Shown piece after piece: positions 1 to 53,985 of a stretch of DNA of 64,000 nt. The position numbers and the translations under genes were made by a program. Position 1 is the first letter of the stretch. The number at the start of each line of letters is the position of its first letter. Below the pieces are notes generated by a model, which saw only the letters and a list, made by a program, of their open reading frames with translations, did not search any database and was not told the origin of the DNA. This DNA is from Azolla caroliniana (lineage: Eukaryota > Plantae > Polypodiophyta): contig JBHGNT010000010.1 in the NCBI GenBank assembly GCA_043228905.1, positions 11,718,001 through 11,782,000 on the forward strand. Direction: 5' to 3'.

Positions 1-837
1 ACTCAGCGATTTTTGACTTATCTTCGGCATCTGCCGACAATCGCTGAGCTCCATGGTTAATCTCCCATGTCGTTAAGAAATCCCTAACATGTGCTTCCGC
101 ATCTGTTCCAAATGTCCCAAATGTCGTCCCAAATGTCGTAAAACGATACCTCTTCCGTCTGTTTTTCGTCTGAAGGTAATTGATCGGATAAGTCAGGAAG
201 TTTCGACCACTTTGTGCTTGATTCCGACTGTTCTTGCGCAATGAACGCTTCCTACACTGCCTTCGTAATTGACCTTGTACGAGGGCGCTTACAACTGACC
301 GGTGTCTCCTCTTCATACGACATCCATTCGATTTGTTCTCTGCTTAATTGCAGATGTAACCGGGCGTGCCAAATTTCTTCTGTGTTAATCGGCTAATTAC
401 TAACTACTACCGATACAGAAGAGTGAACGTCGCTACTCAACGTTCTAACAAGGAATTGTGTTTTACGAACGGAATTATACTATATTAATCGGTAATTACC
501 GTGATCGTTACTTAGTTATAAATTAGGAAGCTTGCACTTAACAACATAGACAATAGAAAGGACACAGAATCCGTACATGATATTCCTAACTTAAACTTAT
601 ATTACTAAATAAACGACCTTTCTTACAATGCCTTCGGTTCCCTTTTATAGGTATACCGAAGGTCTTTCTCATCAAGAACTATTCCTACTTACTATCAAGA
701 ATTACAAAATTATCTAACTAACTTAGTTCTCTTCGTTCACTGCTGAGTCATTGATCCGAACAGTCGATCCGAACCGACTCCGTTTTCGACGCTTTCCCAC
801 TTGTTCGGTAAAACTGACTATCCGGGTCCGGGTAACA
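1..837 (-). mobile_element. 5' end of a Ty3/gypsy LTR retrotransposon (LTR 383-837, PBS, gag start), inserted antisense into ORF1 of the next element
   Basis: On the minus strand the LTR has termini TGTTACCCGG...CCGATTAACA, followed by TGGCACGCCCGG (371-360) and then a gag-like frame (TFGTDAEAHVRDFLTTWEINHG...KIAE). Homology of the host ORF1 to ORF1 of 53195-60392 stops at 838. Confidence 0.75.
360..371 (-). promoter_or_regulatory. Primer binding site, tRNA-Arg type
   Basis: TGGCACGCCCGG; the same motif follows LTRs at 40825 and 51321 and is complementary to the 3' end of plant tRNA-Arg(UCU) as I recall it. Confidence 0.7.
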
Positions 838-1407
838 AGACAACAATCGAACGAGGAAGAAGAGAAGCCGCAAAAAGCAAAAACGAATGCCATAACGATG
901 GCAAGAGACGAAATCAATGAAGATATGGTGGACAGCCAGTACACTCGACCTCATTGGGCACGAGCGACAACGGAGACGCTGGTGAAGATTGGGGAGAAGA
1001 AAGAGACCGTGGTAACCTTGATCGACCACGGCTCGGAGATCAACCTCATGTCAACCGACTTCTACAAAAAAGGAAGATGGCCAATCAATACAAACCACGG
1101 ATGGAAGATTCGCGCGGCAACAAAGTCTACGGAGGATTTGTACGGAGCTTGTCCCAATGTCAAAGTCACAATCGGGGATGTGGAGATGGATCAACACTTC
1201 TTCATACAAGAATCGGCGTCGCATCCTGTCATCCTAGGGCAACCTTATATCACATCATCTCGGATGGAGATCAGAGTGTTCGATAATGGAGCAGCCTTCG
1301 CACGAATAAAGAGTCTTGACAACCAAAGATCGGTCCAATTCCTAACGGTGCGAGCCAATCATGAAAGGAATCAAGATAGTCTCGGAGGCGAATCCTTGGA
1401 TTTTTAG
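838..1407 (+). CDS. gag: C-terminus of ORF1 (Gag-protease), containing the aspartic protease
   Basis: LIDHGSEINLM active site and ILGQPY motif; ends GAT TTT TAG (DF*), as in the homologue. Confidence 0.9.
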   Translation, partial: RQQSNEEEEKPQKAKTNAITMARDEINEDMVDSQYTRPHWARATTETLVKIGEKKETVVTLIDHGSEINLMSTDFYKKGRWPINTNHGWKIRAATKSTEDLYGACPNVKVTIGDVEMDQHFFIQESASHPVILGQPYITSSRMEIRVFDNGAAFARIKSLDNQRSVQFLTVRANHERNQDSLGGESLDF

Positions 1408-1460
1408 AGCGGACTATTGAAGCATGGGGCACAAATAGTCCGAGTTTTCACAAGACCCCA
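1398..1460 (+). promoter_or_regulatory. Predicted -1 ribosomal frameshift signal (GGATTTT plus H-type pseudoknot)
   Basis: Slippery site 1398-1404; stem 1410-1418/1434-1442; TGGGG 1425-1429 can pair with CCCCA 1456-1460; the -1 frame is open into pol. Confidence 0.8.
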
Positions 1461-4400
1461 CAAGAAAGAAGAGTGCGTGGATTGCAAGGAGAAGCAACAT
1501 GTGTCACACCTAGTGGCGCATGTAAACTAGTACTACCCGATAAGAAGCACAAGCGCCGGATACAAGAATTCGAGAAGATGTTGAAAGAAGAGAACATAAT
1601 AGAAGAAGGAGAGTTTGTGACTCATATTATGGAAGAAGCCTCATTTAACGACACCATCGGCGAAATCGAGGACGTCGTGGACTTGAGCTATCTTCACAAC
1701 CAACGCGTGATTTCGGTTAACTCCGTCAACATGTACGCTATCATCGATGAATACCATCGTGGCATCTCGATGAAGGAAGCTGACATCAACACGAAATATA
1801 AAACGGTGGATAAGAAGATCAAGCCAGTTGCGGTTCCACTACCGGAAGATAGCTGGCAAAAGATGAAGGAAGTCGCTAACGATCCAAGCTTAAGAGATCC
1901 GAAGAAGATAGGTCATGTCTTCACCAAAGAGACGAAGGGGAAGCTACGAGTTGGAAAGGAGGATTTCCTTCTCCCCGAAGAGGACTGAATGTTTCACGAT
2001 ATGCTTGAGAGACATGGGAAGGCTTTCGCATTCTTCCCACGAGAAATTGGATGCGTCGACCCAAAGGTTATAGAGCCGATGGTGATCTTCACGGTGCCTC
2101 ATGTGCCTTGGAATTTGAAACCGATACCGGTTCCGAGAGCACACCGTCCGAAGCTGATCGAGCTCTTAAAGGAGAAGGTGAGTATGGGAATTCTAGAACC
2201 GTCGAATGCTCCTTATTCCAATAGGTGGTTCATGGTGCCGAAGAAGAATGGATCATTGCGATTCATCCAAGATCTTCAACCCGTCAACAAGGTGACAATT
2301 CGAAATGCCGGAATCGGTCCGAGCGTGGACGAATTTGCCGAAGCGTTTGCGGGCCGGTCCATCTACTCCATTGGCGATCTCTACTCCGGATATGACCAAT
2401 TCCAATTGGCGATCGACAGTCACGACATTACAACCATGAGGACTCCGATCGGGCTTGTGCGGATGTGTACCTTACCCCAAGGCGCAACGAACTCGGTGGC
2501 TCATATGGTGAATGCCATGAATAAAGTCTTGAAGGATTGCATTCCGGACATCACGATGCCATTCTTGGATGATATTCCGATAAAAGGATGTTTGGATGAG
2601 GAGAAAGATGAATCGAAAGATAAGGAAGATTGTAGAAAGTTCGTTGCGGATCATATGAAAGATTGCGAGAAGGTGCTTCAAAGGCTCGAAGATGCGAATT
2701 TGACATTTTCGGGAGAAAAATCCGCATTCGGGCAACCGGAGATCTTGGTGGTAGGTCACTTGTGTGGAGCATATGGCCGGAAGCCCTCGCCATCCAAAGT
2801 GAACGCAATCCAAGACATGAAAGAAGAATGCGAAAACCAAACGGAGGTTCGAAGGTTCCTTGGAGCGTGCGCGTTTTATCATATATGGATTCCTCACTAC
2901 GCTCATGTCGCCGAACCGTTATATGGACTACTAAAGAAAAGAATAAAGTTCGAATGGCGAGACGAGCACACAAAGGCTATGCAAAGATTAAAGAAACTGC
3001 TTCTTGAAGCTCCGGCACTAAGGAACGCCGACTATGCCGAAGGGAAACCAATTTATGTGACCGTAGATACGAGCCCAACTGGAACCGGGTGGGTCATCAA
3101 TCAAGAAGGCGAAGATAATGCGCGATATGCCATCCGGTTCGGAGCAAAGGTTCTCAGCGAACGGCAACAAAGATATGCCCAAGTCAAGCGGGAACTTTGG
3201 GGTATTGTGTCGGCAGTGAAGACGGACAAAGATTACCTGATCGGGTCAGAAGTGATAATAGAGACAGATTGTCTCCCAATTCTCGGAATGGTCTCGGGAT
3301 GTGCGACCCCAGATCTTGCTATGCTAAGGTGGATCGCCTACATCAAGTCTTTAAACCCAGAGATCCGTCACATTGCAGGGAAGAAGAACGCCATGGCTGA
3401 CATGCTGTCGAGGGCAAGATTTTCAAATGGAAGTAACATGATTTCGGAAGATGAAGATGTCGCCCTCGACTTCTTCAAGATGGCTCGATTGTCGGCGAAA
3501 GATCAGGACACACAAACCCTCCACGCCTTCAACGAGAACGAGTACGAAGGGGAGTGGTTACTCATCGGTAGATTCCTAAGAACATTGACGACAGATGCTT
3601 CGTTGACAAAGGAGGAGGCCCTACGAATCCGAAAGAAAGCTTACCAATACTTCTTGAAGGGAGGATTCCTTTGGCGACATCCAAAAAGAAGGACAGGAGT
3701 ACCACGTCCAGTGGTGGTAAAGAAAGAAGAGCAAGAGACGCTGATGACCGAATTCCACGAGAGTGCTTGGGTAGGTCATAGAGGAACATGGGCGACATTC
3801 GAAAAGTTGAAGGAGAAGTACTGGTGGCCAAGCATGTACAAAGATGTACTCCATTTCGTGTCCACATGCGAAACTTGCCAAATATATTCAAATATACGTC
3901 ATCGTGATGAGTTAAAGCCGACATACCCACTCACCATACACTTCAAATGGATGGTGGATCTGGTCTCGATGCCAATGGGAGTGGGACAAATGAAGTACTT
4001 AGCGCTAGCAAGGGAAGACTTGACAAATCAAGTGGAAGGACGAGCCTTGACAAATAAGACGACTTCAGCCGTTTGCAAATTTCTACTTGAAGATGTTGTT
4101 TGCCGATATGGATGTGTAGGGAAGATAGTGGCCAACCGAGGGGAGTTGGACGCGCACGAAGCAACGGAGCTCTTCGAAAGACTAGGCGTGAAGCTCTCCC
4201 TCACGACTGCCTACAATCCGGAAGCAAATGGGAAGATAGAGCGAGGGCATGGACCTATCGTTAAAGCCATCGTACGGGCATGCAACGGTCGAGTCGGGAA
4301 TTGTCCACAACTATTACCCTATGCCTTGTGGGCCGATAGAACGACACATAGCTCGGTGACAGGGTATAGGCCGACGGAGCTTATGTATGGACAAAAGCCG

Positions 4401-4892
4401 ATTATGCCCATCGAAAGGACGATCGCCTCATGGGTAGCGATACCGTGGGAGAACGAGATGAGCCGAGAAGAGTTATTAGCGGCGCGGATAAGGCAACTTG
4501 AAAGAAGACCTGAAGATTTAGAAAAAGCGCGAAAGATGATGAAGGCAGCCCGAGTAAAGAACAAGGTTCGGTTCGACAACACGCATCGACTTCGTCCCAA
4601 GAAGATTGAAGAAGGGGATTGGGTTTTGGTTTACGACAACACCCTTCACAATCAACACAGTACAACAAGGAAGTTCGCAAGAAGATGGTTCGGGCCGTAT
4701 GTGGTGACAAGTGCCAACGATAATGCCACATACCACCTTGCGGAACTAGACGGATCAAGATTGGCCGTACCCATTGCGGGAAAAAGAGTAAAGATTTTCA
4801 AGAAAAGACAAGACAAGGATCCTGACCTCGATTACCTCGACGATGAACATAATAGGGCGGATGTAAATGAAGACATGGAGGAATCTAATTGA
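1404..4892 (+). pseudogene. pol: Pol (RT-RNase H-integrase) in the -1 frame, with one premature TGA at 1986-1988
   Basis: RT (GDLYSGYDQ, PQGATNS, FLDD), RH (VDTSPTG, ETDC), IN (H..H..C..C zinc finger, AYNPEANGKIER, WFGPY). ORFs 1473-1988 and 1989-4892 are in the same frame. Confidence 0.93.
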
Positions 4893-4964: not shown

Positions 4965-6139
4965 TGTCGTGAAGATTTTCGGCAATAGTGTGAAAATCCC
5001 ATAAAATGTACGAAATCGAGTATGAATCACGTAATACAATAATTGTGAAGATAACATTTTAAACAAATTTAATATCTAAGTACAAAATGATGGAGGTTTC
5101 GAATGCAGTTTATTACACGAGAAACGGACAACTAAATGTCAAGATATTAGGGTATAAAGTTTTTGAAAGGAAAAGAGAAAATTGTGAGATATCCCACATA
5201 GGCACGACAAATACGGCTCTCATCATATATAATGTAGAGCAAAAGATATTATCTTTGCGTCTATGTGTGGAGCATAGAGAGTTCAAGGTAACTTGAACTA
5301 AGAGTGGAGGTGGGCTAGCTACTCGTAAAGGGTTTTGGTTGGCCAAAACCGGACCGGCGATGGAACTGGTGATCCGGCGGCAATCCGGCATCCAGCGAGG
5401 CACCGGTAACCGATGACATTCGCCGCCGGCACCGGTATCCGGCGCCGGTCAGACGACGGAATCCGGCGAGGCACCGGTAATCGACGGCATCTGGCACCGG
5501 CACCGGTAAGACGACGGCATCCGGCGAGGTACCGGTAACCGACGACATCTGGCGGCGGCACCGGTATCCGGCGACTAGATAAATAAATATATAAATATAT
5601 ATACATATATACAAGGAGGGCAAGTAAGGATTCGAACCTTGCACCTCCAAGTTAGGAGTCAATTGGCTTACCATTAAGCCATGCTATTTAGTTCAAATTA
5701 TATTTCTATCATTGTACTTTTACATGTAAATTCTCATACATGAGAGCTAAAATGAGTGACATGGTTATCATGCACCACATGTAATACATAAGCGCCAAAT
5801 GGCAAACATGCAATTTATGCATGTCTTGTACCCTCACATGCATCATATGCATGAGAGCATCTATAAAAGAAGGAAGGGAGAGGAGAAAAAAAACTTTTTG
5901 TTTTTATGATGAAATTAAGAAGAAGAAATTCGTTATCAAATTGATGGTGTAACTTGTTTCTTAAATCCAAAGATAAAAGTTCAATCAATCTCTCTCAATC
6001 ATTTAATCTCAACTTCTCTCTTTCCCAATCAATCTTAAGTACTTTCTCGCCAAAGCTTATACCAACTTTGAATCCTTCCGGTCCAGAACCCCGGCGGTTC
6101 CGCCTCACAATCCGCGTGTAATGACGGATCTTCACGACA
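4965..6139 (+). repeat. 3' LTR (1175 bp)
   Basis: 12-bp terminal inverted repeat TGTCGTGAAGAT...ATCTTCACGACA, preceded by a G-rich PPT; contains CCGG-rich tandem repeats at about 5350-5575. Confidence 0.92.
5616..5686 (-). other. tRNA-like Pol III type-2 promoter module inside the LTR
   Basis: Minus strand TGGCTTAATGGTAAGC (A box with D-stem GCTT/AAGC) ... AAGGTTCGAATCCTT (B box/T-arm) at tRNA spacing; no acceptor stem. Confidence 0.7.
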
Positions 6140-6887
6140 GCGTCACCGATCGCACTTCGCCAGAAGCTCGGAGAGAGCCGGGTCGGGACCAGCCCTCGTA
6201 ATGAAGCATAAGGCTAACCGAATGGGAGTATTCGATTCGAAGTCGGAAAAAGTTTGGTATGTGGATTCCGGAGCTTCAAACCGCATGACGAACCACCATG
6301 AGTGGTTCTCCTTTCTCGAGAAGCCGAAGAAGCTGGGGGTAACCGAAACCGAAGATGACACCCCACATCCCAACGAGCACATCGAAGATGTCCCATTGAC
6401 CCATGTCGACCAGAAAGGGGTCATGAGGAACGTCCGGCATATCTGGATGATCACCAAGAACATGGTGTAAGACTGCTAGATCGTAGATCAAGGAATGCAG
6501 GTCTGATTTACTCACTGTGGTTGCTTCATCGAGGAGGAAGGCTGGATCATCGCGCAAGGGCGCCGGGATGGAAGAATGTTCCTTCTCGAAACCAATGATG
6601 GAGGCACCGTGATGTTTGTGAAAGGGCAGAAGGTCAAGTCGGACATCGACCTGTGGCATAAGGGTTAAAGCACGCTACGGTGTACCAAAAAAAGTATTGT
6701 TTTTGGCTTGTGAAAGGGCAGAAGGTCAAGTCGGACATCGACCCGGTTGCTTCATTGAGGAGGAAGGCTGGATCATCGCACAAGGGCGCCGGGATGGAAG
6801 AATTTTCCTTCTCGAAACCAATGATGTAGGCATCACGATGTTTGTGAAAGGGCAGAAGGTCAAGTCGGACATCGACCTGTGGCATAA
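6140..6887 (+). pseudogene. Ty1/copia pol fragment (protease, GAG-pre-integrase), part 1; includes a local duplication
   Basis: WYVDSGASNRMT and DIDLWHK motifs; continues at 28612 (KRIGHINF). Confidence 0.88.
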
Positions 6888-14107: not shown

Positions 14108-16972
14108 GTTACATAACAAATTAATAATCTACATTTCAGATGATAAAAAGCATTATCCGATTTTTGTTTAACATTAATTTGAGCTTGACCATGCAGATTT
14201 ACTATTTCTTGGTCTTACCTTTAATCAACATTAAGTCTGGTCTGATCGTGTAGCTCCACAATTTAAGGCGGCATGATACTTCTTTTTTATTGCAAGGTAA
14301 ATTGATTATTTTACGTTAAGTACACATAGTTCTAAGTCTATTCAACTAATACTTCATAAGCCTTGAACTATTACTTTAGTTTCCTAAGCTTTCTATTTTT
14401 TAATGAAAACTTAGAACTAATTGTATTCACACTTGTCTACATTACTAATATTAGTTTAGTCTACTACATTTAGTGTTGTTCAATAAAAACTTTTTACTTT
14501 CCTCCAATGTGCATCAATGCTAATTATGTATTTACCGATATTTAGTACTTTTAAATGACAATGTAGTATTGTCCTCCCATGTGGATCAATATTAATTGTA
14601 TATTTACCTATATTTAGTATTTTTATATAACAAATTAGTATTGTTCTTCTATATGCATCATCACCGATTGTCTATTCACCTATGCTTAGTATTTTGAATA
14701 ACTTAGTATTGCTATCAAATGTGCATCAATACTAATTATGTGTTTACCCATGTTTAGTATTTTTAAATGACAACTTAGTATTGTCCTCCCATATGTGTTA
14801 GTACTAATTTTCTACTCGCTTATGTTTAATATCTATAAATAATAACTTAGTATTGTCCTCCCATGTGTATCAATACTAATTGTGTATTACCTAAGTTTAA
14901 TATTTTTAAATAAAAACTTAACATTGTCCCCCCATGTGTGTCAGTACTAATTTTATATTCACGTATGTATAGTATCTATAAATAATAACTTAGTATTATC
15001 TTCGCATGTGCATCAATACTAATTGTGTATTTACTTAAGTTTCATATTTTTAAATAAAAACTTAGTACTATCCTCCCATGTGCATCGGTACTAATTGCAT
15101 ATTTACCCAAATGTAGTATTTTTAAATAAAAACTTAGTACTATCCTCCCATGTGTTTTAGTACTAATTTTCTACTCACTTATGCTTAGTATTTTTAAATA
15201 ACAACTTAGTACTATCCTCCCATGTGAATAAGTACTAATTGTCTATCCCCGGGTTTAGTATAGATATAAATAAAAACTTACTATTGTCCTCCCATGTGAA
15301 TCAATACTAATTGTCTATTCACGTATGTTTAGTATCTACATGTAATAACTTAGTATTGTCCTCCCATGTGCATCAGTACTAACTTACAACATAGTACTAT
15401 CCTTAATTTACAACTTAGTACTATCCTCCCACGTGCACAAGTACTGATTATGTTTTAAGCCATGTAAAATATTCTTAATTTACAACATAGTATTATCCTC
15501 CCACGTCTACTAGTACTAATTCTATTTTAAGCCATGTTAAGTATTCTTAATTTACAACTTAGTACTATCCTCTCACATGAATCAATACTAATTATGTTTT
15601 AAGCCATGTAAAGTATTCTTAATTTACAACTTAGTACTATCCTCCCATGTGCACAAGTACTAATTATGTTTTAAGCCATGTAAAATATTCTTAATTTACA
15701 ACATAGTACTATCCGCCCACGTCTATCAAGACTAATTTTGTTTTAAGCCATGTTAAGTATTCTTACTTTACAACTTAGTACTTTCCTCTCACATGAATCA
15801 ATACGAATTATGTTTTAAGTCATGTTAAGTATTCTTAATTTACAACTTACTAATGTCCTCCCATGTGCACAAGTACTGATTATGGTTTAAGCCATGTAAA
15901 GTATTCTTAATTTACAACTTAGTACTATCGTCCCACATCTATCAATACTAATTCTATTTTAAGACATGTTAAGTATTCTTAATTTGCAACTTAGTAATGT
16001 CCTCCCATGTGAATCAATATAATTAAGTTTTAAGCCATGTTAAATATTGTTTGGCTACATGTGATGTACTAACTTAGTATTGTTACTAATGTTTGTTGGC
16101 TACCTGTGATGCAAAACGCCTAGGTACTTCTCATTGACCAACATTAGGATGCAATGGAAATACTTCAGGTCTGGACATGGAAAGGGAGAGTATGATGGGG
16201 CGGAGGCTATGATCAAGCATGCTCTTATAAGCAAGAAAGTGGATAATAAAGGTGCTAAGTTACAAAATGCACATGATGTTGTGGAGTGACTGACATGGAA
16301 GATGTGAAAGGATGGTAAGAATAGATTGTTTATTGAGAATCATATGGTTGTAAAACCGCGAAAAGGACATGTAAGATCCATTGTTCTTTAGGGTTTTGTC
16401 ACAAGGACACAACACAATTGCTATTTCGCAGTTTATCATGTTTTTGTTCCATGTGTATTATAGGTGAATCTTGGGATGAATGCACCAATCTATCAGTTGC
16501 GGAGTCATGGAAGTTGCAGAAGCTTGAGATTCAACAACAAGATGATATTCAAGAAAACGAACACTCGGACAATATTGTATACTACAACCAATGTACACTT
16601 TTATTGGAGATCATTTTGCAGTGTTGAAATCTCCTCAAAATGAAGATTTTGAATGAAGACTACTACATTGTGGTGTGCAAGCAAGGGAACACAATATTGA
16701 AAGAAGTGACTAGGGATGGTTGGGGCAACATGTCCAACGTTGGCGAGTCTATCATCTGTGGCAACTATTATGCAAAGTTGCCACAATGCAAGAACACGTA
16801 TGCATTATTGCAAGCTGCACCCACTACCATAATCTATGATGATGCCATTACCGCAAGCAAGTTCACTATGATTCAAGCAAAGCACAAAATTAAGGGATAC
16901 AAAACTATCTACAAGGTCCCTCAAGATGTACATGAACACATATTGGGGGAGGTCTCCCTCTTTAATGCTTAG
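14108..16972 (+). pseudogene. Sola2-like DDE transposase, C-terminal part; exons about 14108-14296 and 16124-16972
   Basis: YISDDKKH...VWSDRVAPQFK...FIAR|YFS...YFRSGHGKGEYDGA..IK...LSCFCSMC; GT at 14297 and AG at 16123 join in frame; several stops and a frameshift. Confidence 0.8.
14500..16050. repeat. Tandem array, about 72-bp unit, inside the transposase intron
   Basis: Unit acaacttagtactatcctcccatgtg...aagccatgtaaagtattcttaattt; period 72 (15601 to 15673). Confidence 0.93.
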
Positions 16973-17089
16973 AATTTTAACTGTTAATATATTGTAGAAA
17001 CCTTGTAGAATGACCAGTGATCTTCAATCTCAGATCTTCATATGTAAGTTCACAAGTTATCCTAATTAGGGATGACAAATTCATCAATA

Positions 17090-17750
17090 TATATCCTCTT
17101 TGGTTTTCCTAAAGTGTTTGGTGCTTATATAGTGTTATATTTTTCTAGTAATATATTATCCTCTTTGGTTTTCCTAAAGTGTTTGGTGCTAATATAACGT
17201 TAAATGTTTCTAGTCATGTATTATCTTCTTTGGTTTTCATAAAGTGTTTGTTGCTCTTGTAGTGTTAATTGTTTCTAGTAATGTATATATCTTATTTGGT
17301 GTTTGTTAAGTGTTTGGTGCTCTTATAGTGTTAAATGTTTCTAGTAATGTAATATCCTCTTTGGTTTTCATAAAGTATTTGGTGCTCTTGTAGTGTTAAT
17401 TGTTTCTAGTAATGTATTATCCTCATTGGTTTTCATAAAGTGTGTGGTGCTCTTGTAGTGTTAACTGTTTCTAGTAATGTATATATCCTCTTTGGTGTTC
17501 GTTAAATGTTTGGTGCTCTTATAGTGGTAAATGTTTCTAGTAATGTAATATCCTCTTTGGTTTTCATAAAGTGTTTGGTGCTCTTATAGTGTTAACTGTT
17601 TCTAGTACAATATATATCCTCTTTGATTTTCATAACGTATTTGGTGCTCTTATAGTGCGAACTGTTTCTAGTAATGTATATATCCTCTTTGGTTTTCATA
17701 AAGTGTTTGGTGACCTTATAGTGTTAATTGTGTCTCGTCATGTATATATC
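17090..17750. repeat. Tandem array, about 65-bp unit
   Basis: ctagtaatgt...tcctctttggttttcataaagtgtttggtgctcttatagtg; period 65 (17341 to 17406). Confidence 0.93.
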
Positions 17751-17937: not shown

Positions 17938-19058
17938 ATGATGTCATAAACATCTTTGGAGTGTAATGGACTCAACATTCATCTTCTCTTAAAACATTAT
18001 ATTCATACTTAGAGAGAGAACAAAAACAATGTCTGACATATCAATTCGGTACATAATAAGTATAAAAAAGATTTATCATTTCGACATGAAAATAACAAGT
18101 ACAGACCATGACCCATAAAATCTTTGGCACTAGTATTTTCTGGTACTTATAATGCATCGAGAACTGATCATCTCCTTCATTGATTTTACATCTGTCTACA
18201 TACTACTGAGTGGCACTTCATCAACAGAGGCCAATAGGACAACATCAAATGGTTCCCCTCCTCGGACCAGTGGCACCCGCCTTGAGTTTCCTACTTTATT
18301 GTTTATACCAACATGAGATGCACAATCATTCAAAAAGGTGCAGTTGATAGCAATATCATCATGTACCTCCTGGGTGCTGATGGATTCCTCGTCCTTCATT
18401 TGGTGCGGCTCCTCTTCGTGGGTGGTGGTCGTAATTTTCTGAGACCCATCCTAGCTGATGTTGTCCACATCTTTCTTAGTACCCATGTATTGCTCTTCGT
18501 GGGTGGTAGCTGTGTTTTTCACACACACATCCAGGATGGAGTTGTCCACATCTTTTGTAGTACCCATGTGCTCCTCTTCATGGGTGGTTGTTTTGTTTTT
18601 CACTCACTCATCCGGGATGGTGTCATCCATATCTTTCGTAGTACCCATGTGCGTTTCTTCATGGGTAGTAGCGGTGTTTTTCGCAGATTCATCTAGGATG
18701 GTGTTGTCCACATCTTTCTTAGTGCACATGTGCTCCTCTTCGTGGCTGGTAGTTGTGTTTTTTGCAGACTCATCCTGGATGGTGTTGTCCACATCTTTCT
18801 TAGTACTCATGTGTTCCTCCTCGTAGAAAATGCTAGAAACCGCATTCTTTTTATAGTCTTTCTCCTCTTCTAAATTGAATGTGGTGTTTTCTTCACAATC
18901 CTCATGTGTGGTTGCGGTGTTGTCAGAGTCATCTTTTGTGCAAGGCATAGTCACGATCTCGGAGTCTTCGTCTCTACTCCATATAGTGCCTGAATCATCT
19001 TCTTGTATTTGTTAATCTCCTCATTCATGTCCAACTAAATCTGAATGCACCCAATAAT

Positions 19059-22000
19059 TGTTAGGATTTCGGTCCCTCCGGATGGGATATGAGTACCCAG
19101 CAATGGAAGACCCAGTGAGAACCGGATGATGAGTACCCGGCAAGGAAGACCCGGTGAGAACCTCTCACCGAATGAAGGGACATATATGTAAATATGTTCC
19201 AGAGATCCCACTAGGGCTACATTTGTAAATAGTCCTAATTTCATATTAGTATAAATATGACCTAGGGAAAACAGAGTGTTGTGTGTATCATAGAGTGTGT
19301 TGTCATTATTTTGTATAGTGTTATTGGTGTAACTGTTGTACAGAGAAAGAGAGAGAGAGAGACAGTGTGAGTCTCTATTGTAACCGCCGCCAGGCGAAGA
19401 TTGTCAGCACGAGGTCGTCGCCTCTATGTTCCCCTGTTGTATTCCTATTGGACATAGTGATAGCTTGGAGTTTGTGGACTCCCGTGTTTTTTCCCGTTTA
19501 AGGTTTTCCACATTAACATCATGTGCATTCTCTTCTGTTTGTGTACCTACTTCCATTTCTCATCTTTCTGTGTTTGATTATCATTGAAGTGACCTAAGTC
19601 TTGGTTGTGGCCGACGATTATTCTGCAAGTTCCTTTCAATCTGGTATCAGATCAAAACGACACAGAAAAATGGAAGATTCGTTGGGAAGCATGTTCAAGC
19701 TCACCAGCTCCAACTACTCAGTGTGGAAGTCAAAGATGAGGGACATGCTCGTGGTTAAAGATCTCTGGTTGCCGGTTCAGTTCGGGGACAACAATGACGT
19801 ACATACGATGCTTCATTGACATGAGCCTGTACAACAACTTCAATGAGGAGAGTAAGGCTCATGAGCTCTGGGAGAAGATTGACATTATGTTTCAGAACAA
19901 AAATGTTGTTAATCAGATTTCGGTATTGCGGAAGCTAGTGCGGCTCCGGTACCAAGATGGCTCCAGCATGGTGGAGCACATGAATGCCTTCCAGGGGCTG
20001 ATTCACCAGGCAACATCGTTGGAAGTACCTTTCGCCGATGAGGTACTAGCATTAGTCCTGCTCGGTTCCCTCCCGGATAGCTGGGAGACATTAGTTGTCA
20101 CTTTGGGCAATGCCGGGTCGGAAGGAAAACAATTGTCCCTAGCAAGAGTCAAGTCAAGCTTGCTAGATGAGGAGGCGTGTTGGAAAAACAAGGATACGAT
20201 CTCCGACTCCAAAGCGCTCCTTACCAAATCGGAACGTGGAAGATTAAGGAACCGTGGTCCCCAGAACCGGGAAAAATCAGGGACACGGTCAAAGTCAAGG
20301 GGGAGGCCTACTTGCTTCTATTGCGGCAAGCCTGGACACTTCCAAAAGAACAGTCGGCATTTCCGGGAAGAGAAGGAAACCGACAGTACCAACTCGAAGT
20401 GGTCACCGGACCGGAATGGTAAAGACCAAAGGGGACTGGACCGGATGGGAACGACGGCAATCGCAGCAAGTGAAGAGGAGTTGATGCTCATCACCGAGGA
20501 GAGTGAGTTGAACCTTGCTGGCGACGAGACAACATGGGTTGTCGATTCCGGAGTGTCGTTCCACCTGACCTCGAACCGGAAATGCTGACAACACCAACCG
20601 GATGCAAATTGTTACTGAAGGATGTCTGACACGTTCGGGAGGTTCGATTGAACCTGATATCAATCGGTCGGCTAGATGATGAAGGCTACATAGGTAGCAT
20701 CCGGAACGGTGTTATGAAGTTCACCAAGGGGAGCCTGATAGTGGCTCGAGCCCGGAAAGTTAACACATTGTACTTAATGAATGCCCAGTTATGCCGGGAA
20801 GAAGTGAACGTCGCATCTGACACTGCCGGTGAGCTGTGGCACAAGAGACTATGTCACATGAGCGAGAAGGGAATGAGGAGGCTTGCCGATGACAACCTCA
20901 TTCTGGTAAAGGACGTGCATCTTGAGAGGTGCACCGACTGCTTGGCTGGTAAGCAAAACCGGACCTGCTTCCAATCAAGGCCACCGATGAGACGTAATGC
21001 ACCACTGGAGCTGGTGCATACCGATGTGTGTCAAGTAGACACAAAGTCACATGCTGGAGCACAGTACTTGGTGATGTTCATAGATGACCACAACCGGAAG
21101 TTGTGGGCCACACCGTTGAAGACGAAGGATCGGGTGTTATCCGTCTTCAAGGAGCTCCACGTGAGAGTGGAAAGAGAAACCGGCCGGAAGCTGAAGGCGG
21201 TTCAAGCAGATAACGGAGGCGAATACCGGGGGCAGTTTGAGGAGTATTTCCGCTCGAATGGCATCCGGCTCGAATTTACTGTGCTGAAGAAGCCGGAACT
21301 CAATGGGCTGGCCGAGAGGATAAACTGGACCATAATGGAGAGGGTCCGGAGTATGCTAGCACATGCTAAACTACTCAAGACGATTTGGGTTGAGCCGATG
21401 TCGACAACGACGTATGTGATAAACAGATCACCCTCAGTACCCTTGGATGGAGACCCGCTGTATAGAGTGTGGACCGGTAAGGAAGTGTCTTACCGGCATC
21501 TGAAGGTGTTCGGGTGTCTCACTTACGTGCATGTTGCAAAGGATCGGAGAGCAAAGTTGGATCCAAAGTCCAGGCCTTGAGTTCGGCTACTGAGTGTGGG
21601 ATTTGGTTAACAAGAAGGTTTTCCGGAGTCGAGATATTATCTTCATGGAGGACAAGACCCTTGCCGACTGGGAGTCAGAGAAGAAGATAATGAACTCTGA
21701 GTCAATCGGTAAGGATCGATTCGATGAGATTCGGACCTACCCGGCTAAGAGTTGGTTGAACTCGAAGAACCAGCCGGCTACGGTGAGGATACCGAACCAG
21801 CAGAAGAAGAAGAGGAGGAAGCTGAAATCGGAACCGGCCAAGATCCCGAATCGGATTCGGATGAAGAACAGACACACGAGCCGGTTACTGAAAGCTGAAG
21901 TCACAGATATCCTCTCAGAGAGAGAAGGCCCCCACAGAGATTTTTGGATGTAGAACATGTGTTGTTGACTGATGAGGGGGAGCCGGAAAGCTTCAAACAA

Positions 22001-23865
22001 GCGAAGGATAACACTCGTAGCTGCAAGTGGTTGAGTGCCATGCAGGACGAGATGAATTCCCTACATGAGAACCACACGTATGAATTGGTGGATTTGCCAA
22101 AAGGGAAGAGGGCACTCCAAAACAAGTGGGTGTACAAGTTAAAACCGGGAGATGCCGGCAACCCCCCAAGGTACAAAGCCAAGATCCTGGTGAAGGGGTT
22201 CCAGTAGAAAAAGGGCGTGGACTTCGACGAGATATTTGCCCTGGTAGTAAAGATGACTTCCATCCAGACAGTGTTGAGCATAGCGGCAAGCATGGACCTC
22301 AAGGTAGAGCAGTTAGCCGTGAAGATGGCATTCCTTCACGGCGAGCTCGAAGAGGAGATCTACATGTAGCAACCGGAGGGATTTGTGAAGAAAGGGAAGG
22401 AGCACCTGGTTTGTCGATTGAAGAAGAGCCCCTACGGTTTGAAGGAGGCTCCCCGGCAATGGTACCGGAAGTTCGACTCCTTCATGACCGATCAAGAGTA
22501 CCACAAGACGCAGGCCGATCACTGTGTGTTTGTGAAGAAGTTCGAAGGTGGAGACTTCCTGATACTCCTCTTGTATGTGGACGACATGTTGATTGTCGGA
22601 CGAGACCAAGTCAAGATACGGATGCTGAAGAAGGCTCTGAACGGAGCCTTCTCAATGAAAGACTTGGGTCCGGCAAGACAAATACTGGGGATGCATATCA
22701 TTCGGGACCGGTCAAAGAAGCAATTGTGGCTGTCACAGGAGAAGTACGTGACAAAGGTGCTTCAGCGGTTCAACATGTCAAATGCTAAATCGGTCGGATC
22801 GACACTCCCGGAAAACTGCAGGTTATCTGGTAAGCAAAGCCCAAAGACAAAAGTAGAGAAAGCTGATATTATGAAGATACCATATGCCTCTGTCTTCGGG
22901 AGCTTAATGTACACAATGGTGTGTACCCAACCGGATATCGAATACGCAGTCGGAGTGGTGAGCCGGTTCATGAGCAAGCTCGGCAAGGAGTACTGGAATG
23001 CGGTAAAATGGATACTCCGGTACTTGAAAGGCACCTCAAGTATGTGTCTCCAATTCGGCTCTGGTAAACCCCAACTTGACGGTTTCACCGATTCGGATAT
23101 GTCGGCTGATGCGGATACCAGTCGGTCAACATCCGGATACGTCATTACATATGCAGGGGGACCTGTTTCGTGCAGTCGAGGCTATAGAAGACGGTTGCAT
23201 TGTCAACCACGGAAGCGGAGTACATGGCGGCTGTGGAAGCCGGAAAGGAAATACTATGAATGAAGGACTTCATCGAAGAGCTAGGGATCCGGCAAGAGGA
23301 ATACCGGCTTTATTGCGACAGTCAAAGTGCCATCCACCTTGCGAAGAATGCAACATATCATTCCAGGACGAAGCACATCCAGTGGAGGTACCACAGGATC
23401 CGGGAGCGAGTGGAAGATCGAGAGTTCGTGTTGACGAAGATCCACACAGAGGAGAACGGGTCGGACATGCTGACCAAGGTGTTGACACCCGACAAGCTGG
23501 ATGCATGCAGGAAGAGAATCGGATTGACGAGGCATCCCATGCCAGAGTGAAGGGGGAGTTTGTTAGGATTTCGGTCCCTTTGGATGGGATATAAGTACCC
23601 GGGAACGGAAGATCCGGTGAGAACTGGATGATGAGTACTTGGCAAGGAAGTCCCCGTGAGAACCGGATGTTGCAAGCCCGGTGAGAACCTCTCACCGGAT
23701 GAAGGGACATATATGTAAATATGTTCCAAAGAGCCCATTGGGGCTACATCTATAAATAGTCCTAATGTCATATTAGTATAAATATGACCTAGGGCAAACA
23801 AAGTGTTGTGTGTATCATAGAGTGTGTTGTCATTATTTTGTATAGTGTTATTGGTGTAATTGTTG

Positions 23866-24166: not shown

Positions 24167-24263
24167 ATAATACCAGCATCAATACCAATCTCAATTAACA
24201 TACAAGGTTAAGGTTCACACTGCTGCCTATTGTTACATCGGCGTGATCCTCTACTTCTGTAGA

Positions 24264-25830
24264 CTATGCTAGTACTAGCCCACCTAAATATGGAGTAGAT
24301 TCTAGTATTAAACCTACATTACAACTAATTGTAGAATGCAATGTGTACTATGTTAGTACTAGCTGACCTAAATATAGGATGGATTCTAGTACTACACCAA
24401 CTGTACACCTAAAAGTCTCCTAAATTTGTACTATGCTTGTCCTAGCCCACCTAAATATAGAATGGATTCTAGTACTAAACCAACTGTACAACTAATTCCA
24501 AAATGAAGTGTGTACTTACTACCATGTCAGTACTAGCTCACTTATATATAGGATGGATTCTAGTACCAAACCAACTCTACATGTAAAGGTCTCTTGAAGC
24601 ATGTACTATGCTAGTACTAGCCCACCTAAGTATAGAATGGATACTAGTACTAAACCAACAGTACAACTAATTGCTGAATTAAATGTGTACTATGTTAGTA
24701 CTAAATCACCTAAATATAGGATGGATACTAGTACTACAACTGTACACCAAAAGGTTTGCTAAATTTGTACTATGCTTGTCCTAGCCCACCTAAATATAGA
24801 ATGGATTCTAGTACTAAACCAATTGTACAACTAATTCCAGAATGAAGTGTGTACTATGTTAGTACTAGCTCACCTAAATATAGGATGGATTCTAGTACTA
24901 CACCAACTGTACACCTAAAGGTCTCCTAAATTTGTACTATGTTTGTCCTAGCCCACCTATATAGAGAATGGATTCCAGTACTAAACCAATTGTACAACTA
25001 ATTGCAGAATGAAGTGTGTACTATGTTAGTACTAAGTGCTAGCTCACTTATATATAGGATGGATTCTAGTACTACACCAACTCTACACGTAAAGGTCTCC
25101 TGAAGTGTGTACTATGCTAGTACTAGCCCATCTAAATATAGAATGGATACTAGTACTAAACCAACAGTACAACTATTTGCAGAATGAAATGTGTACTATT
25201 TTAGTTCTAGCTCACCTAAATATAGGATGGATACTAGTGTACTACATCAACTATACACCTAAGGGTCTCCTAAATTTGTACTATGCTTGTCCTAGCCCAC
25301 CTAAATATAGAATGGATTCTAGTTCTAAACCAATTGTACAACTGATTCCAGAATGAAGTGTGTACTATGTTAGTACTAGCTCACCTAAACATAGGATGAA
25401 TTCTAGTACTACATCAACTGTACACCTAAAGGTCTCCTGAAGTGTGTAATATGCTAGTACTAGCCCACCTAAATATAGAATAGATTGTAGTACTAAACCA
25501 ATTGTACAACTACTTACTGAATGAAGTGCATACTATGTTAGTACTAGCCCACGTAAATATAAGATGGATTCTAGTACTACATGAACTATACACCTAAAGG
25601 TCTCTTGAAGTGTGTAATATGCTAGTATTAGCTCACCTAAATATAGAATAGATTGTAGTACTAAACCAATTGTACAACTACTTACTGAATGAAGTGCATA
25701 CTATGTTAGTACTAGCCCACGTAAATATAAGATGGATTTTAGTACTCCACCAATCGTATACCTAAAGGTGTCCTGAAGTGTGTACTATGCTAGTACTAGC
25801 CCACCTAAATATAGAAGGGATTCAGTAAGA
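24264..25830. repeat. Tandem array of alternating about 84/83-bp monomers (about 167-bp dimer) in an intron of the RING gene
   Basis: ctagcccacctaaatatag recurs at 24781, 24865 and 24948. Confidence 0.93.
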
Positions 25831-26869
25831 GTAGCATGTTTAGTACTACAAAAACTATACACCAACATGTAAATTTAGTTACGATGAATGCACAAGAACT
25901 AAACGACATAAATATCGATGCAACATATAGTATATGGAGCGAAACCAATACTAAACCATGAATTTTCTACTTTCTGGTATGAATTATGACCTAAACCAAT
26001 ACTAAAGCAACTATTAAATGGAATTAGAAAATACTAAAAGACATAATAGCAGTATCACATACCAGAGGAGTGAACTTTGAAACCCATAGCTAAGTACCAT
26101 TCAGCTCCAATCGTATTTTACAGTCCATACATGTATTTACTTTCTCAAAGTGGTACTTAGCACATAGCGTATGATATGTGTGCAAACACAGTGTAATCAC
26201 AACATCCATAGCCTCGAGCTTGAATCCAAGGCCACATAATACACATATGCACTTGGAGACATAGACTACCACATAATAGCTAAAGGAGAAAAATATAAAC
26301 CATAGAAGGTAAAAGGAGAGATATCCTCTTAGGCATCCTCAGACTTCAAGCCAGTGTTTGTACTGGAGGACTCTCTATAATGTGATGATTGGTGACGAGT
26401 AAAGTCTTCCTAGTCAACTTCAATGTCACTTGAACTTCACATGCAAAAACACATGTGCTTCACCCTTTCTTTGGTGTGTGTCTATTTACTTTCTTTGATG
26501 GGGGGTCCAAGTTCTTTCCTTTGTGGGTGTCATCACTTCATCTTTGACTAGTGCCTTCCTCGTGGGTGTCTTCTTTGTCAATTTTCTAGTTCTCACTCTT
26601 CTTCTAAAAAAGCTTCCACAACACAGTATTAACTCCCTTGCATAGCTATAAACTAGTACTTACTTCACACATCAATATACATAGCAAAATACCATTCCTA
26701 AATCACACAGGAAATTACCACACTATAAATATGTCTAGACAACAATACTAAATCAACAAGAACAAGAAGAATAACAACAAGACAACAACTTTTCAACATA
26801 GCAGTACTAAGTCAAGCGTCCCCCTTTCCAACAAGAAGAAGAAGAAGCAAAGCAGATTCAAGCATATAT

Positions 26870-34100: not shown

Positions 34101-37100
34101 GGTGTGGAGACAAGTCGGCACTCTGTCATACCGAACTTGGACAACATATTTAACACATAGTGTCGTTGTGAGAGCAATATGCCATCGGGGATTCGGATCA
34201 CCTCGATCCCAAGAAAATAATGAAGGTCCCCCAAGTCCTTCATTTTAAATGCATCCGACAGCTGGGACTTTACTCAGCCGATTTCATTGAGTCCGGGTCC
34301 GGTGATGACTAAATCATCAACATAAAGTAGGATGCAAACCGGACCGTCCGGAACTTGCCGGATGAACAACGACGAGTCGGATTTACAGGTCACAAACCCC
34401 ATCTTACGCAACCGGTGTGTGATCTTCGTATTCCAAGCTCAGGGGCCTTGTTTTAGACCGTAAAGAGACTTCTTGAGCCGGCACACCGCCGACTTGTTCA
34501 TCTCCGACTGAAAACCGGGAGGTTGGATCATATAGACCCGTTCTTCAAGGTCACCTTGAAGAAATGCATTCTTCACGTCCATCTGGTGAAGATGCCAACC
34601 CCTTGCCACAACAACCACCAGTACCACACGAACCGTCGTCATCTTCGCTACCGGGGCGAAGGTCTCGTCGTAATCTATTCCCTGGGTATGTACGTATCCC
34701 TTGGCCACTAACCGGGACTTGTACCGGTTAACCGAACCGTTGGTATTGTACTTTACCTTGTACATCCATTTGCAACCAATCGGTTTACAGTGTCGGGGAG
34801 GGTCAACAAGGTCCCACATGTCGTTGGCATCTAGTGCCCGCATTTCTTCCTCCATAACAGCACACCAATTTGCATCCTTTGCCGCTTCTGCGTAGCTCTC
34901 CAGCACCTTAGTCATGAACGCATAATGATGCGCCATGTACTCATTGTACCTGTACCGCGTAACGGGGTTCTTCAGGCGGGAAGACCGGCGTAACTTAGTA
35001 TTACCCGGTTTGGGGCCCTTCTTGGCTAGATCGGACTTCGTTCTAAAGATCCGCCATCATCCTTTCCAGAACTGGATGCGTTCTGATCCGACTCAACGTT
35101 GCCGGCTTCGTATTCCGGCATCTTCTTCTTCCCCTTCTCTTTGGGCGTTAACCGTCTCTTCGGTTCCTTGCGCGGGGAGAGCACGAGAGAGTCTCTACTA
35201 CTCGCTGGTTCTTCATCCGACTGGTCACTTTGACCCAGTCTCTCGTTTGGTCCACTCAATTGAAACAATTGCGGACTCTCTTCTAAAGTTTCCAGCTTGT
35301 CATCTTCTATCTCCTTCTAGAGTCTCCAGCTCGTCATCTTCTATCTGGGCCTCCTCAGGCTCACTAGCCTCATCTTCCGAAATCGGGTCTTCGTCAGGAG
35401 TTGGAATCGGTTAGGAGTACCATGATGTTGTCTCATCAAGCTCGACATCTCGGCTTACTCGGACCTGCTTAGTCTGGGTGTTATAGCACTTATACCCCTT
35501 TTGCTCATTCGAGTAACCGACGAGATTGCACTTCTTCGACTTCAGATCTAGCTTCCTCCGCTTCTCATCCGGTACATGCACATATGCTATGCTACCGAAT
35601 ATCCGAAGGTGTCTCAAATTCGGCTTTCGCCCGAAATAACAACTCATGTGCTAACACCATGTCACCGATCCGGTTTTGGATGTAGACGGTCATCCGGTCC
35701 GCCTCGGCCCAGGCGAAATGGGGCATGCTCTTCTCCTCTAGCATTGCCCTTGTCGCGTCGACAATCGACCGGTTCTTCCTTTCGGCCACACCATTTTGCT
35801 CCGGTGTGTACCTGCAACTGAATTCTCTCTGAATTCCATTCTGTTGCAGATAACTGTTGAATTGGCCGGAAAAGTATTCTTTCCCGCCATTCGACTGTAA
35901 GCACTTGATCTTCCTCTCCGTTTCCCGTTCAACCAAGCTTTGAAGGTTCCGGAAACACTTGAAGACTTCTCTCTTCCTCTCGATGAGGTAGATCCACGTG
36001 TGCCGATTGTAGTCGTCGATGAAGGAGACGAAATACCAACTCCCGCCAAGACTAACGTTTTGTGTTGGTCCCCATACATCCGAATGGATTAAATCGAGCT
36101 TGTTATGGCTCCGGTTTCGATCGGTGGGGAATGGAAGCCGGTGTTGCTTCCCGGGTTGGCAGGCTTCACAAATTTCGGCCTTCCAGCCGCTATTCGGCGA
36201 ACTGAAAACGACTTGTTTCGATTGCAAGTCTTGAAGCCTCCGATAATTGACGTGGCCGATCCGCTTGTGCCATAGGTCGATGTCCGATTCGACCTTCTGC
36301 CCTTTCGCAAACATAGCGGTGCCGACATCATTAGTGTTGAGGATGAACATCCTCCCGTTTCTGCGTCCTTGCGCAATTATCCGGCCCTCTTCCTCGATGA
36401 AACACCCTAGGTGCATAAACCGCACTTGCATCCCCTGGTCGACGATTTGCCCAACTGACACCAGGTTCTTTGTGATAGTCAGAACATGTAGTATGTTCAT
36501 CATCTTCCCCTTTTGTCCGACATGGCTTAAAGGGACTTCTCCGACATGCACAATCGGGTGAGGGGTGTCGTCTCCGGTTTCGACAATCCCCGGTTGTTCC
36601 GGTTTCTCCAAAAAAGAGAACCACTCTTCATGGTTCGTCATGTGATTGGACACTCCGGAATCAACATGCAATACTTCCTCTGATTTGGAAGTAGTCTTCT
36701 TCATCAAGTTAGCCTTGTGTTTCATCACAAAGGCTGGCCCTTTACCGGTTTTCCCAGTTCTGGATCCTTCTTATCCTTCTGCGTAGTGCAAGCTTTGCTA
36801 GTTCTCCCGACCGATTTTGACGGATCCGGATTTGTCCGAATTGGCACACTTCTTCCAGCACTCGCTTTCCCTGTGGCCATTTTTGCCACAGTACCAACAT
36901 TCCATGTCGGCCTTTCCTTGCCGGTTCCCGGCGCCGCTTTGACTCCCCCTACTTGTGGAGGGTCCGGAACTATTGTCGGCACAACCTCTGTGCCTTTGGT
37001 CCTGCTCTTGTCGGCCGCCTCCATTGCGTGCCGACCCACCTCGTCCACCACATCCATGGGGCCGATCTGTCTCTGTGTACAACATTCGATCGTCCGATTG

Positions 37101-49566: not shown

Positions 49567-50860
49567 TTCCCTCTTTTTCTTGAGAATCGTATCAAGCGTT
49601 ATCATCGCCATGGAGTCCGTTAGCAAGCAAGAGTATGTTCGAGTCGTCTCTGAGCTCGAGCATCTCATAAACAAGTTTCTAGCTCTAGAGCAAGAGAATC
49701 AACGATTGCTTGGAGATTTACAACAAGTAAGCATAGAAAAGGCGCAACAATATGACGAGTTATCAACACGTGTATTGCAACTCGAAACAACATTGCGGTC
49801 TCTTCATCAACAAGCTTCGATGCAACAAAGCTCTCCCAAAGAACCAAAGATTTGTTTGCCCGGGAAGTTCGATGGTAATCGATCACAGTTTCGAGGATTA
49901 TCGATTGGTCAAGAAGAAAGATGGGTCTTTACGATTGGTCATGGATTATCGAGGTTTAAACAAAATCACAGTTCGAAATAGATATGTTCTACCCTTGATA
50001 TTGAGTTTACTAGAGCGTCTTAGTGGAGCTAAAAGTTTTCACAAAGCTAGACCTTCGAGGTGCATATAACCTTGTGCGGATACGTCCAGGAGACGAATGG
50101 AAGACAACATTTTGTACCCAATATAGACATTTCGAGTACACAGTTATACCTTTTGGTCTCACGAATGTGCCCATAGTTTTTCAACACATGGCGAATGATA
50201 TTTTTCGCGACTTCTTGGATTCATTTACCATAATATATCTTGATGACATCTTGATCTACTCTAAAAGTCAAAAAGAGCATGACACACATGTCCGCCAAGT
50301 CCTCCAACACTTACGAGAATCTGGGCTCTATGCCAAACTAGAGAAATGTAGCTTTGATCAAAACCACGTGGAGTTTCTAGGGTATGTGGTTTCACAATAA
50401 AGTATATATCAATGGATCCATCCAAGGTGCAAACAGTTCTAAACTGGGAAACACCTCGCTCAGTGCGTGATGTTCAATGTTTCTTAGGATTTGCGAAATT
50501 TTACCGCAAATTTATCAAGAACTATTCAAACATCGTGATGCCTCTCACGGAGCTTACACCAAAGAACAAGTCGTTCACATGGAGTTCCAGTGCCGCCAAA
50601 GCTTTTGAAAACCTAAAGAGAACATTCACTTCTACTGTAATTCTACTTCATGCTAACCTAGAAAAACCCTTTATCATCGAGGCGGATGCATCTGATTTTG
50701 CACTAGGAAGTATCTTGTCGCAGGTTGGAGATGACGGAAAGCTGCATCGAATTGCTTTCCATTCACACAAATTCGAAGTAGTAGAGATCAATTATGAGAT
50801 TCACTGCAAAGAGCTCCTAGCCATTATAGACTCGTTTGAACAATGGAGGCATCTATTTGA
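49027..50860 (+). mobile_element. Truncated chromovirus-like (Tcn1/sushi-type) Gypsy: LTR about 49027-49465, gag start, internal deletion, RT-RH
   Basis: LTR ends TTGACA; gag [14 protein letters not shown]; [27 protein letters not shown]; RH EADASDFALG; about 27-bp repeats at 49170-49280. Confidence 0.85.
49052..49120 (-). other. tRNA-like A/B-box module inside the LTR
   Basis: Minus strand TAACCTAATGGCTAGAG ... GGGGTTCGAGTCAC at tRNA spacing. Confidence 0.6.
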
Positions 50861-53349: not shown

Positions 53350-53420
53350 ATGCGCAGGGCGTGATTCGAACTCTACACCTCCACGTTGACAAACCCCAAC
53401 CTTACCATTACATTAACTTA
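53350..53420 (-). other. tRNA-like A/B-box module in the LTR (second copy at about 59795-59865)
   Basis: Minus strand TAATGTAATGGTAAG ... GGAGGTGTAGAGTTCGAATC, followed by an oligo-T run; homologous to 5616-5686. Confidence 0.62.
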
Positions 53421-53951: not shown

Positions 53952-53969
53952 TGGTGAACCCGACGTGAA
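53952..53969 (+). promoter_or_regulatory. Primer binding site, tRNA-Trp
   Basis: TGGTGAACCCGACGTGAA, complementary to the plant tRNA-Trp 3' end (..TTCACGTCGGGTTCACCA) as I recall it. Confidence 0.85.
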
Positions 53970-53985
53970 GACGGGTGGCAAGGAG

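Follow-up and report, generated by a model that had tools for sequence, protein, structure and literature searches.

In RSV the protease is a part of Gag. The RSV shift, like the pro-pol shifts of MMTV and HTLV, is a -1 shift between protease and reverse transcriptase (RT), and the RSV slippery site stands directly before the 0-frame stop codon, with a pseudoknot after it (PMC5009743, PMC12789967, PMC12002268). According to PMC5009743, the XXX rule admits heptamers that begin with G_GA or G_GU as exceptions, the usual spacing to the downstream structure is 5-9 nt, and the IBV-type H pseudoknot has a long stem 1 of at least 11 bp. The same source confirms what a sequence-only reading of the DNA described here had stated, that dianthoviruses and umbraviruses shift at G_GA-type sites, with pea enation mosaic virus RNA 2 as the umbravirus example.

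In plant LTR retrotransposons, the Gag:Pol ratio is mostly known from splicing, as in EVADE, BARE1 and Ogre (PMC12786077, PMC6317226), and a 2016 review, summarizing a 2003 survey, knows of only two kinds of plant element whose frames are separate, in both cases by +1 (PMC5009743). In the supplement of PMC6317226 (Neumann et al. 2019), the polyprotein of the Tat elements Ogre and Retand is split between PROT and RT, by a spacer intron in Ogre and a single in-frame stop in Retand, neither having overlapping frames; Tcn1 and Selgy of seed-free plants do have overlapping frames, but between GAG and PROT. No lineage in the supplement table has GAG-PROT overlapping RT-RH-INT. The polyprotein organization of Phygy, which the survey regards as a Physcomitrium patens-specific clade, is listed there as ND (not determined).

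Here we describe two elements of Azolla caroliniana, E1 and E2, which are Phygy-like and in which, judged from their sequence, RT and integrase are very probably reached by programmed, pseudoknot-stimulated -1 frameshifting between protease and RT. The mechanism is a known one; its placement and the cassette are new for this lineage so far as the literature was searched. A full-text search, mostly of sources other than subscription papers and repeat databases, returned no title or abstract describing such a cassette, and the word 'frameshift' is absent from a P. patens transposon-expression paper (PMC7466625); other supplements of PMC6317226 may record ORF layouts for single Phygy elements. 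The elements resemble MMTV, HTLV and RSV in the position of the predicted shift, and RSV also in the order of slippery site, stop and predicted pseudoknot. They differ from all three in being plant retrotransposons without env and in their heptamer, from MMTV and HTLV in having a single predicted shift, and from RSV in a simple two-stem predicted fold where RSV has a double pseudoknot. With umbraviruses and dianthoviruses they share the heptamer, the plant ribosome and a 0-frame stop close behind, but in those viruses a bulged stem-loop pairs with a distant 3' loop, whereas here the partner strand lies 10-16 nt past stem 1 (PMC5009743). Convergence is as likely as transfer to account for the shared heptamer.

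Two Phygy-like elements and their neighbourhood

The window (the whole stretch of DNA analysed, 64,000 nt of contig JBHGNT010000010.1) carries E1 and E2 on the + strand, to which all element coordinates below refer. E2 spans 53195 to 60392 in full (7.2 kb). Its 5' LTR (53195-53947) has TG..CA ends and is preceded by the target duplication ACGG at 53191-53194; the 3' LTR (59615-60392) has the same base at 746 of 750 aligned positions and is followed by ACGG at 60393-60396. A primer-binding site at 53952-53969 is complementary to the 3' end of the host tRNA-Trp. ORF1 (53986-56025, 679 aa) encodes a Gag-like region (DUF4100 hit) and a protease domain (55582-55965), and the pol frame (56016-59627) contains, free of stops, a 129-aa linker, RT, RNase H and integrase. 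In E1, the window holds the 3' part of ORF1 (838-1407), encoding the end of gag and the protease, the pol frame with linker, RT, RNase H and integrase (1398-4892), and the 3' LTR (4965-6139), which has 92.5% identity to its own 5' LTR and is directly followed by the target duplication GCGT at 6140-6143. A nested element separates this part from the 5' part of ORF1 and the 5' LTR, both of which are located upstream of the window. The nested element is a different gypsy-type one of ~9.4 kb, inserted in the E1 gag in reverse orientation (window 1-837, G000:C10 ~11709483-11718837); it has 455-bp LTRs, of which that at 383-837 (- strand) is 99.3% identical to its upstream counterpart, and a 5-bp duplication, AGACA.

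The TG..CA LTR ends and the domain order PR-RT-RH-IN identify E1 and E2 as Ty3/gypsy LTR retrotransposons. They share 70% protein identity in the protease, 78% in RT and 27% in the linker; despite this last figure, nucleotide identity reaches 71% over the first 66 nt of the junction. The linker of these elements is generally 120-155 aa long and poorly conserved, with no RNase H hit. Both target duplications, ACGG (E2) and GCGT (E1), have the form NCGN, and the primer site is complementary to tRNA-Trp in both elements; these are marks of Phygy (PMC6317226 supplement). All three genome loci checked for the primer-site complement are tRNA-Trp genes, and the primer-site 17-mer occurs 5,561 times in the 523-Mb genome. 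No chromodomain or additional RNase H was detected by Pfam (E<=0.01) in either pol frame or linker. TatI, which likewise has tRNA-Trp priming and a 4-bp duplication, was considered and rejected, as its additional RNase H between PROT and RT was not found. Named homologues of ORF1 come from Physcomitrium, Riccia and Adiantum, the nearest being P. patens proteins. Starting from a distant homologue, a search for relatives in fungi or algae returned two proteins, and no named fungus or alga among them.

On the target duplications, the primer site and these moss, liverwort and fern homologues, E1 and E2 are assigned as Phygy-like, an assignment by marks and homologues where the primary criterion for Phygy is RT/RH/INT phylogeny with REXdb references. 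They also agree with the survey entry in that coding sequence fills the element. They depart from it in that the Gag-PR / -1 / RT-RH-IN organization can be read, in having homologues in Riccia and Adiantum as well, and in the length of E2, slightly under the 7.7-10 kb listed for Phygy (PMC6317226).

The window contains further repeats. Tandem arrays lie at 14400-16055, 17023-17744, 18332-18822, 24187-25869 and 61350-61843, with periods of ~72, 65, 81, 84 and 51 nt, respectively. Broken copia-type elements with gag, integrase and RT hits are found at 19740-23263 (+) and 35592-36770 (-), and decayed pieces of gypsy pol at 44484-46490 and 49899-50849. Elsewhere in the genome, matches to the tRNA-Trp 3' end cluster at G000:C8 17796786-17823371, with a spacing of ~1.2 kb, and at C16 4989495-5105657; these may be tandem arrays of tRNA-Trp genes.

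The catalytic motif of retropepsins (family A2) is D-T/S-G. In the domain that precedes the junction, 114 of 120 homologues have D-H-G in its place (LIDHGSE in E2, in the region of 55639-55647). Pfam protease hits on this domain were below cut-offs. A search of PDB sequences with an ORF1 profile gave nothing at E<=1, so a fold search was needed; the predicted model (pLDDT 78.6) has a retropepsin fold, and its best Foldseek hits are the proteases Ddi1 RVP, XMRV, EIAV, HIV and FIV, with E-values of 2e-6 and up. The modelled fold suggests a retropepsin-type protease with an atypical putative active site, and agrees with the earlier placement of the slippery site after the protease.

The junction between protease and reverse transcriptase

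In both elements ORF1 ends Asp-Phe-stop, and RT, RNase H and integrase lie in the -1 frame. An ending of G GAT TTT plus a stop had been proposed for both and is borne out. In E1 the heptamer G_GAT_TTT, read Asp-Phe in the 0 frame, occupies 1398-1404 and abuts the stop TAG at 1405-1407; in E2 the heptamer at 56016-56022 is directly followed by TAA at 56023-56025. The accompanying claim that the -1 frame is open into RT in both holds for E2, which is stop-free to 59627, but in E1 the frame is open only through the linker to the start of the RT region, because of a stop at 1986-1988.

The junction is highly repeated in the genome. An 18-mer shared by E1 and E2 has 993 exact matches, against none for a reversed control. 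A pattern anchored on the protease end, in which the leading GGA was not required, gave 4,041 matches, and 3,586 of these carry GGATTTT followed by TRR (0 and 1 in controls).

Among metagenome loci (the best 80 of 169), 73 have a heptamer, namely GGATTTT in 65, GGATTTC in four, GGGTTTT in two, and GGTTTTC and GGTTTTT in one each; six of the remainder are rearranged or shifted and one runs off the contig end. The heptamer rule demanded the first G, and none of the six missed loci has an Asp-Phe ending. G_GAU_UUU is itself a non-canonical heptamer, and the variants G_GGU_UUU, G_GUU_UUC and G_GAU_UUC retain the slippery tandem geometry. RT lies in the -1 frame at 60 of these best 80 loci, in +1 at two and in 0 at one, and is out of view at 17; the earlier placement of RT in the -1 frame thus extends from E1 and E2 to 60 of the 63 metagenome loci with RT in view. 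This frame runs uninterrupted from the heptamer into RT in 59 of the 60. In eight loci it opens just 10 nt before the ORF1 stop, and the shift is therefore pinned to the heptamer. Overlapping ORFs, an open -1 frame, and a heptamer or accepted exception in 73/80 loci are together the features of a frameshift cassette. A search of viral contigs gave five pattern hits, none of which was confirmed.

The stop lies directly after the heptamer in 66 of the 73 loci, one codon later in two and five codons later in five. In the last group (L129, L131, L133, L136 and L138) it falls inside the 5' arm of stem 1, described below, and these late stops match 25 homologous proteins that end in xF plus five residues. 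At the protein level, 92 of 120 ORF1 homologues (the best 120 of 169), with examples in Physcomitrium, Riccia and Adiantum, terminate in [DGN]F, either alone or with five further residues. Such ends are found in 84/87 gene calls on contigs versus 8/33 named eukaryotic gene models, and, judged by eye, the same ending is frequent in distant representatives of 39-50% identity. The heptamer opens with a G that occupies the wobble position of 13 different codons, for 12 amino acids; this base is invariant in all 35 representatives, in which the four third positions upstream are mixed. On this evidence, a -1 shift at G_GAU_UUU is highly probable.

The predicted downstream RNA fold

The predicted structure follows the heptamer closely. 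In E1, stem 1 (1411-1441) pairs 1411-1418 with 1434-1441, an outer C-G pair extending the arms to 1410 and 1442; the predicted 5' strand of stem 2, TGGGG at 1425-1429, lies within the loop, and its predicted 3' strand is CCCCA at 1456-1460. In E2, stem 1 (56029-56059) pairs 56029-56038 with 56050-56059, with an outer pair extending the arms to 56028 and 56060, and GTGGGG in the loop (56042-56047) is predicted to pair with CCCCAC at 56074-56079. Both strands of the TGGGG/CCCCA pairing first proposed are thus present as described. Taken alone, the hairpin has a z-score of -2.50 in E1 and an unremarkable -1.08 in E2, and the structural case therefore rests on comparison.

For this purpose, 144 junctions were reduced to 38 clusters at 85% identity, and three decayed ones (L048, L057 and L135) were dropped, leaving 35 non-redundant rows, which were aligned by MAFFT, unguided and gap-free. 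On these rows both stems covary, stem 2 less strongly. Unaided, RNAalifold returned an 8-bp stem beginning 6 nt past the heptamer, within the usual 5-9 nt, with double changes at six of its eight pairs. Both sides have changed at 7/9 pairs of stem 1 and, less cleanly, at 5/6 pairs of stem 2. Across both stems, 85.1% of cells are paired against 77.9% after shuffling, with 58 double changes against 17.6 (0/500 shuffles), and slid controls give 41-43%; as the rows are related, cell counts overstate the independent events, and as these controls ignore relatedness, the results are not probabilities. Against a synonymous-codon null in the pol frame, stem 1 had 10.1 pairs observed versus 6.0/12 (maximum 6.7) and stem 2 scored 16.1 versus 11.4 (maximum 12.8), so that protein constraint does not explain the stems. 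The combined geometry of stems 1 and 2 is found in 33 of the 35 representatives and 136 of the 144 junctions, compared with 435 (0.34%) of the 128,419 remaining positions that these loci contain. A search with six loci against 4,227 Rfam families gave no match at E<=1.

Some details of the proposed fold are narrower in scope. The 5-nt spacer and the 13-nt distance to the 3' strand hold in E1 and E2, but the conserved spacer is 6 nt and the distance varies from 10 to 16 nt across relatives. The outer C-G pair is paired in 11/35 relatives only and was rejected as a conserved feature; the 5-nt and 13-nt figures are therefore subfamily details. Mismatches are frequent among the upper stem-1 pairs of the E1/E2 group (in columns 22-25, 9-20 of 35 rows are unpaired), and 8-10 contiguous pairs with mismatches above set this group apart from the IBV type, which is more closely approached by distant relatives (L129, L130, L131, L134, L136 and L138) with 11-12 stem-1 pairs (PMC5009743). 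These relatives have a 7-nt loop and a stem 2 of 5-8 bp. Stem 1 is very likely to act as stimulator.

The formation of a true pseudoknot by stem 2 is probable. Hairpin-loop bases pair with a 3' strand, as in an H-type pseudoknot, with support from covariation and a register that varies between subfamilies; with one register imposed on all rows, stem 2 is paired in only 74.8% of cells, since the length of the connecting loop ranges between 10 and 16 nt. It is unlikely that a real -1 shift is instead stimulated by the stem-1 hairpin alone, or by an RNA that switches from stem 1 to another fold and back, with no stable pseudoknot; this explanation shares the shift, and its probability is counted within that given to the preferred one. 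It is favoured by the RNAalifold result, which contains stem 1 only (pseudoknots being beyond the scope of that program), and by L090, the commonest family in the genome, in which the minimum-energy fold lacks stem 1 and uses the stem-2 helix with an inner hairpin. In addition, stem 2 has 4 bp in 2/35 rows and mostly sets a G-run against a C-run, so that non-cognate partners often score equally (mean 16.1 for cognate and 14.0 for non-cognate partners) and the E1 loop ranks its own partner only 11th of 35.

Several observations favour the pseudoknot. Swapping partners between rows, loop against 3' strand, lowers the score from 16.1 to 14.1 (0/10,000). Where the loop is not a G-run (L129, L130, L131, L136, L138, L139 and L150), the cognate partner ranks 1st-2nd among 35, and in distant relatives both strands have been replaced together, as in L130 (GCGAGA/TCTCGC), L136 (GCGGGA/TCTCGC), L150 (ACAGGG/CCCTGT) and L131 (CAAGG/CCTTG). 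The 3' arm is kept although it starts in all three codon phases (14/17/4). In a subset of 20 rows selected for similar loop length, 87.5% of cells are paired, with 19 double-change cells against 7.1 after shuffling (0/500); the count of pairs with a double change in this subset was not significant, being reached by 78/500 shuffles.

Additional hairpins occur in some subfamilies. One ending at or just before the slippery G is seen in L031, L033, L050, L060, L090 and E2 (55975-56016), and may be attenuator-like in those subfamilies only; z falls below -2 in 9/35 rows, and in 0-2 of 35 in four windows further upstream. A universal 5' attenuator hairpin was rejected, on these nine rows and a mean z of -0.5. 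An extra small hairpin in L089 (2992-3063), L090 (2989-3060) and L035 either sits in the loop that separates stem 1 from the 3' strand of stem 2 or competes with stem 2, and could indicate a three-stem or switching fold.

Translation of pol and its implications

What the sequences show is how the frames are related, the heptamer, a constant spacing of 6 nt, the open -1 linker of 120-155 codons and the compensatory changes in both stems; from them we infer slippage, its rate and the simultaneous formation of both stems. Under the preferred explanation, pseudoknot-stimulated frameshifting, ribosomes with Asp and Phe tRNAs on G_GAU_UUU would meet the predicted stem 6 nt ahead. As in known -1 frameshifting, the pseudoknot would pause the ribosome at the mRNA entry channel, tRNA-Asp would leave GAU and re-pair at GGA, accepting one mismatch, and tRNA-Phe would move from one UUU to another. 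A minority of ribosomes would slip one base back and produce Gag-PR-RT-RH-IN. The majority would terminate at the adjacent codon and produce Gag-PR, so that the expected yield is Gag and protease at 1:1, both exceeding RT and integrase.

Pol could also be reached by splicing, if an intron over the junction were removed from some transcripts and Gag-PR thereby fused to RT without recoding. This is very improbable. In its favour, the 11 homologues that are longer and fused, each of them an automated gene model (ten Riccia, one Physcomitrium), span the junction, and a similar join appears in three of seven fused models compared, all three from Riccia. Gene predictors are known to invent introns across frameshifts. 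The -1 linker is stop-free in 26/26 rows in which it can be delimited (9/35 cannot), compared with 4-25 stops in the other frames, and there is no conserved GT donor before the stop (best 12/35). A spliced pol RNA, which the sequence-only reading had named as evidence against its own proposal, was looked for at L091; RNA reads cross this junction at a depth of ~4-20, with no splice joint listed. These data are thin, being polyA RNA-seq from three runs of one study (12-13% of each run), with reads on both strands, and come from related copies, mostly 90-99% alike to L091. Splicing would also leave the invariant wobble G and the 6-nt spacing unexplained. Ogre does splice in this way (PMC6317226 section 13), but its junction is marked by splice sites and by a spacer, non-coding and with stops in every frame, that lies between PROT and RT, and these features were not found here.

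At the E2 junction there is almost no RNA coverage. At window 55000-55517, over the end of gag, polyA reads of a relative accumulate, nearly all in one orientation, and thin out before the end of the protease; a single copy may give rise to a short transcript of the gag region.

A further alternative is that pol is translated on its own, from an AUG within the linker that ribosomes reach by reinitiation or internal entry, and that the stem acts in packaging or dimerization. Packaging is a possible role of RNA structures in retroelement genomes, and most rows do have a Met near codon 98-113, ~20 codons ahead of the RT region. The first AUG, however, lies anywhere from codon 4 to 104, and at least 100 codons upstream of the shared Met stay open, which makes reinitiation unlikely; in addition, the Riccia models have Leu at the place of the shared Met, and a packaging signal is not expected at a fixed position relative to a slippery heptamer. 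Separate production of pol therefore has a slim chance, slightly below that of splicing. Polymerase slippage on the U-run, adding one base in some transcripts, is the least probable route: most junctions have five consecutive T, but the GGATTTC variants (4/73 loci) have only three, no insertion was seen at the L091 site in RNA reads (10% threshold), and the tandem geometry (G_GGU_UUU, G_GUU_UUC) with a 3' structure at 6 nt fits ribosomal slippage. Readthrough of the stop was ruled out, because pol lies in another frame and all three stop codons occur.

Beyond E1 and E2, it is reasonably likely that mosses, liverworts and ferns share a lineage-wide cassette, in which RT and integrase would be expressed by a pseudoknot-driven -1 shift at G_GAU_UUU behind an atypical D-H-G protease. 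Such a conserved -1 cassette would fill the 'not determined' entry for Phygy, a lineage abundant in seed-free plants. It also calls for caution with automated gene models, which span the junction with doubtful introns. If correct, plant retrotransposons would here have their first -1 pseudoknot with support from covariation. Carried by thousands of chromosomal copies, it would provide a natural library of pseudoknot variants, with a stem 1 from 12 bp to 8 bp, for plant ribosomes. As the shift is placed after the protease, equal amounts of Gag and protease are predicted; this raises the question of how early cleavage is restrained, on which the D-H-G motif may bear.
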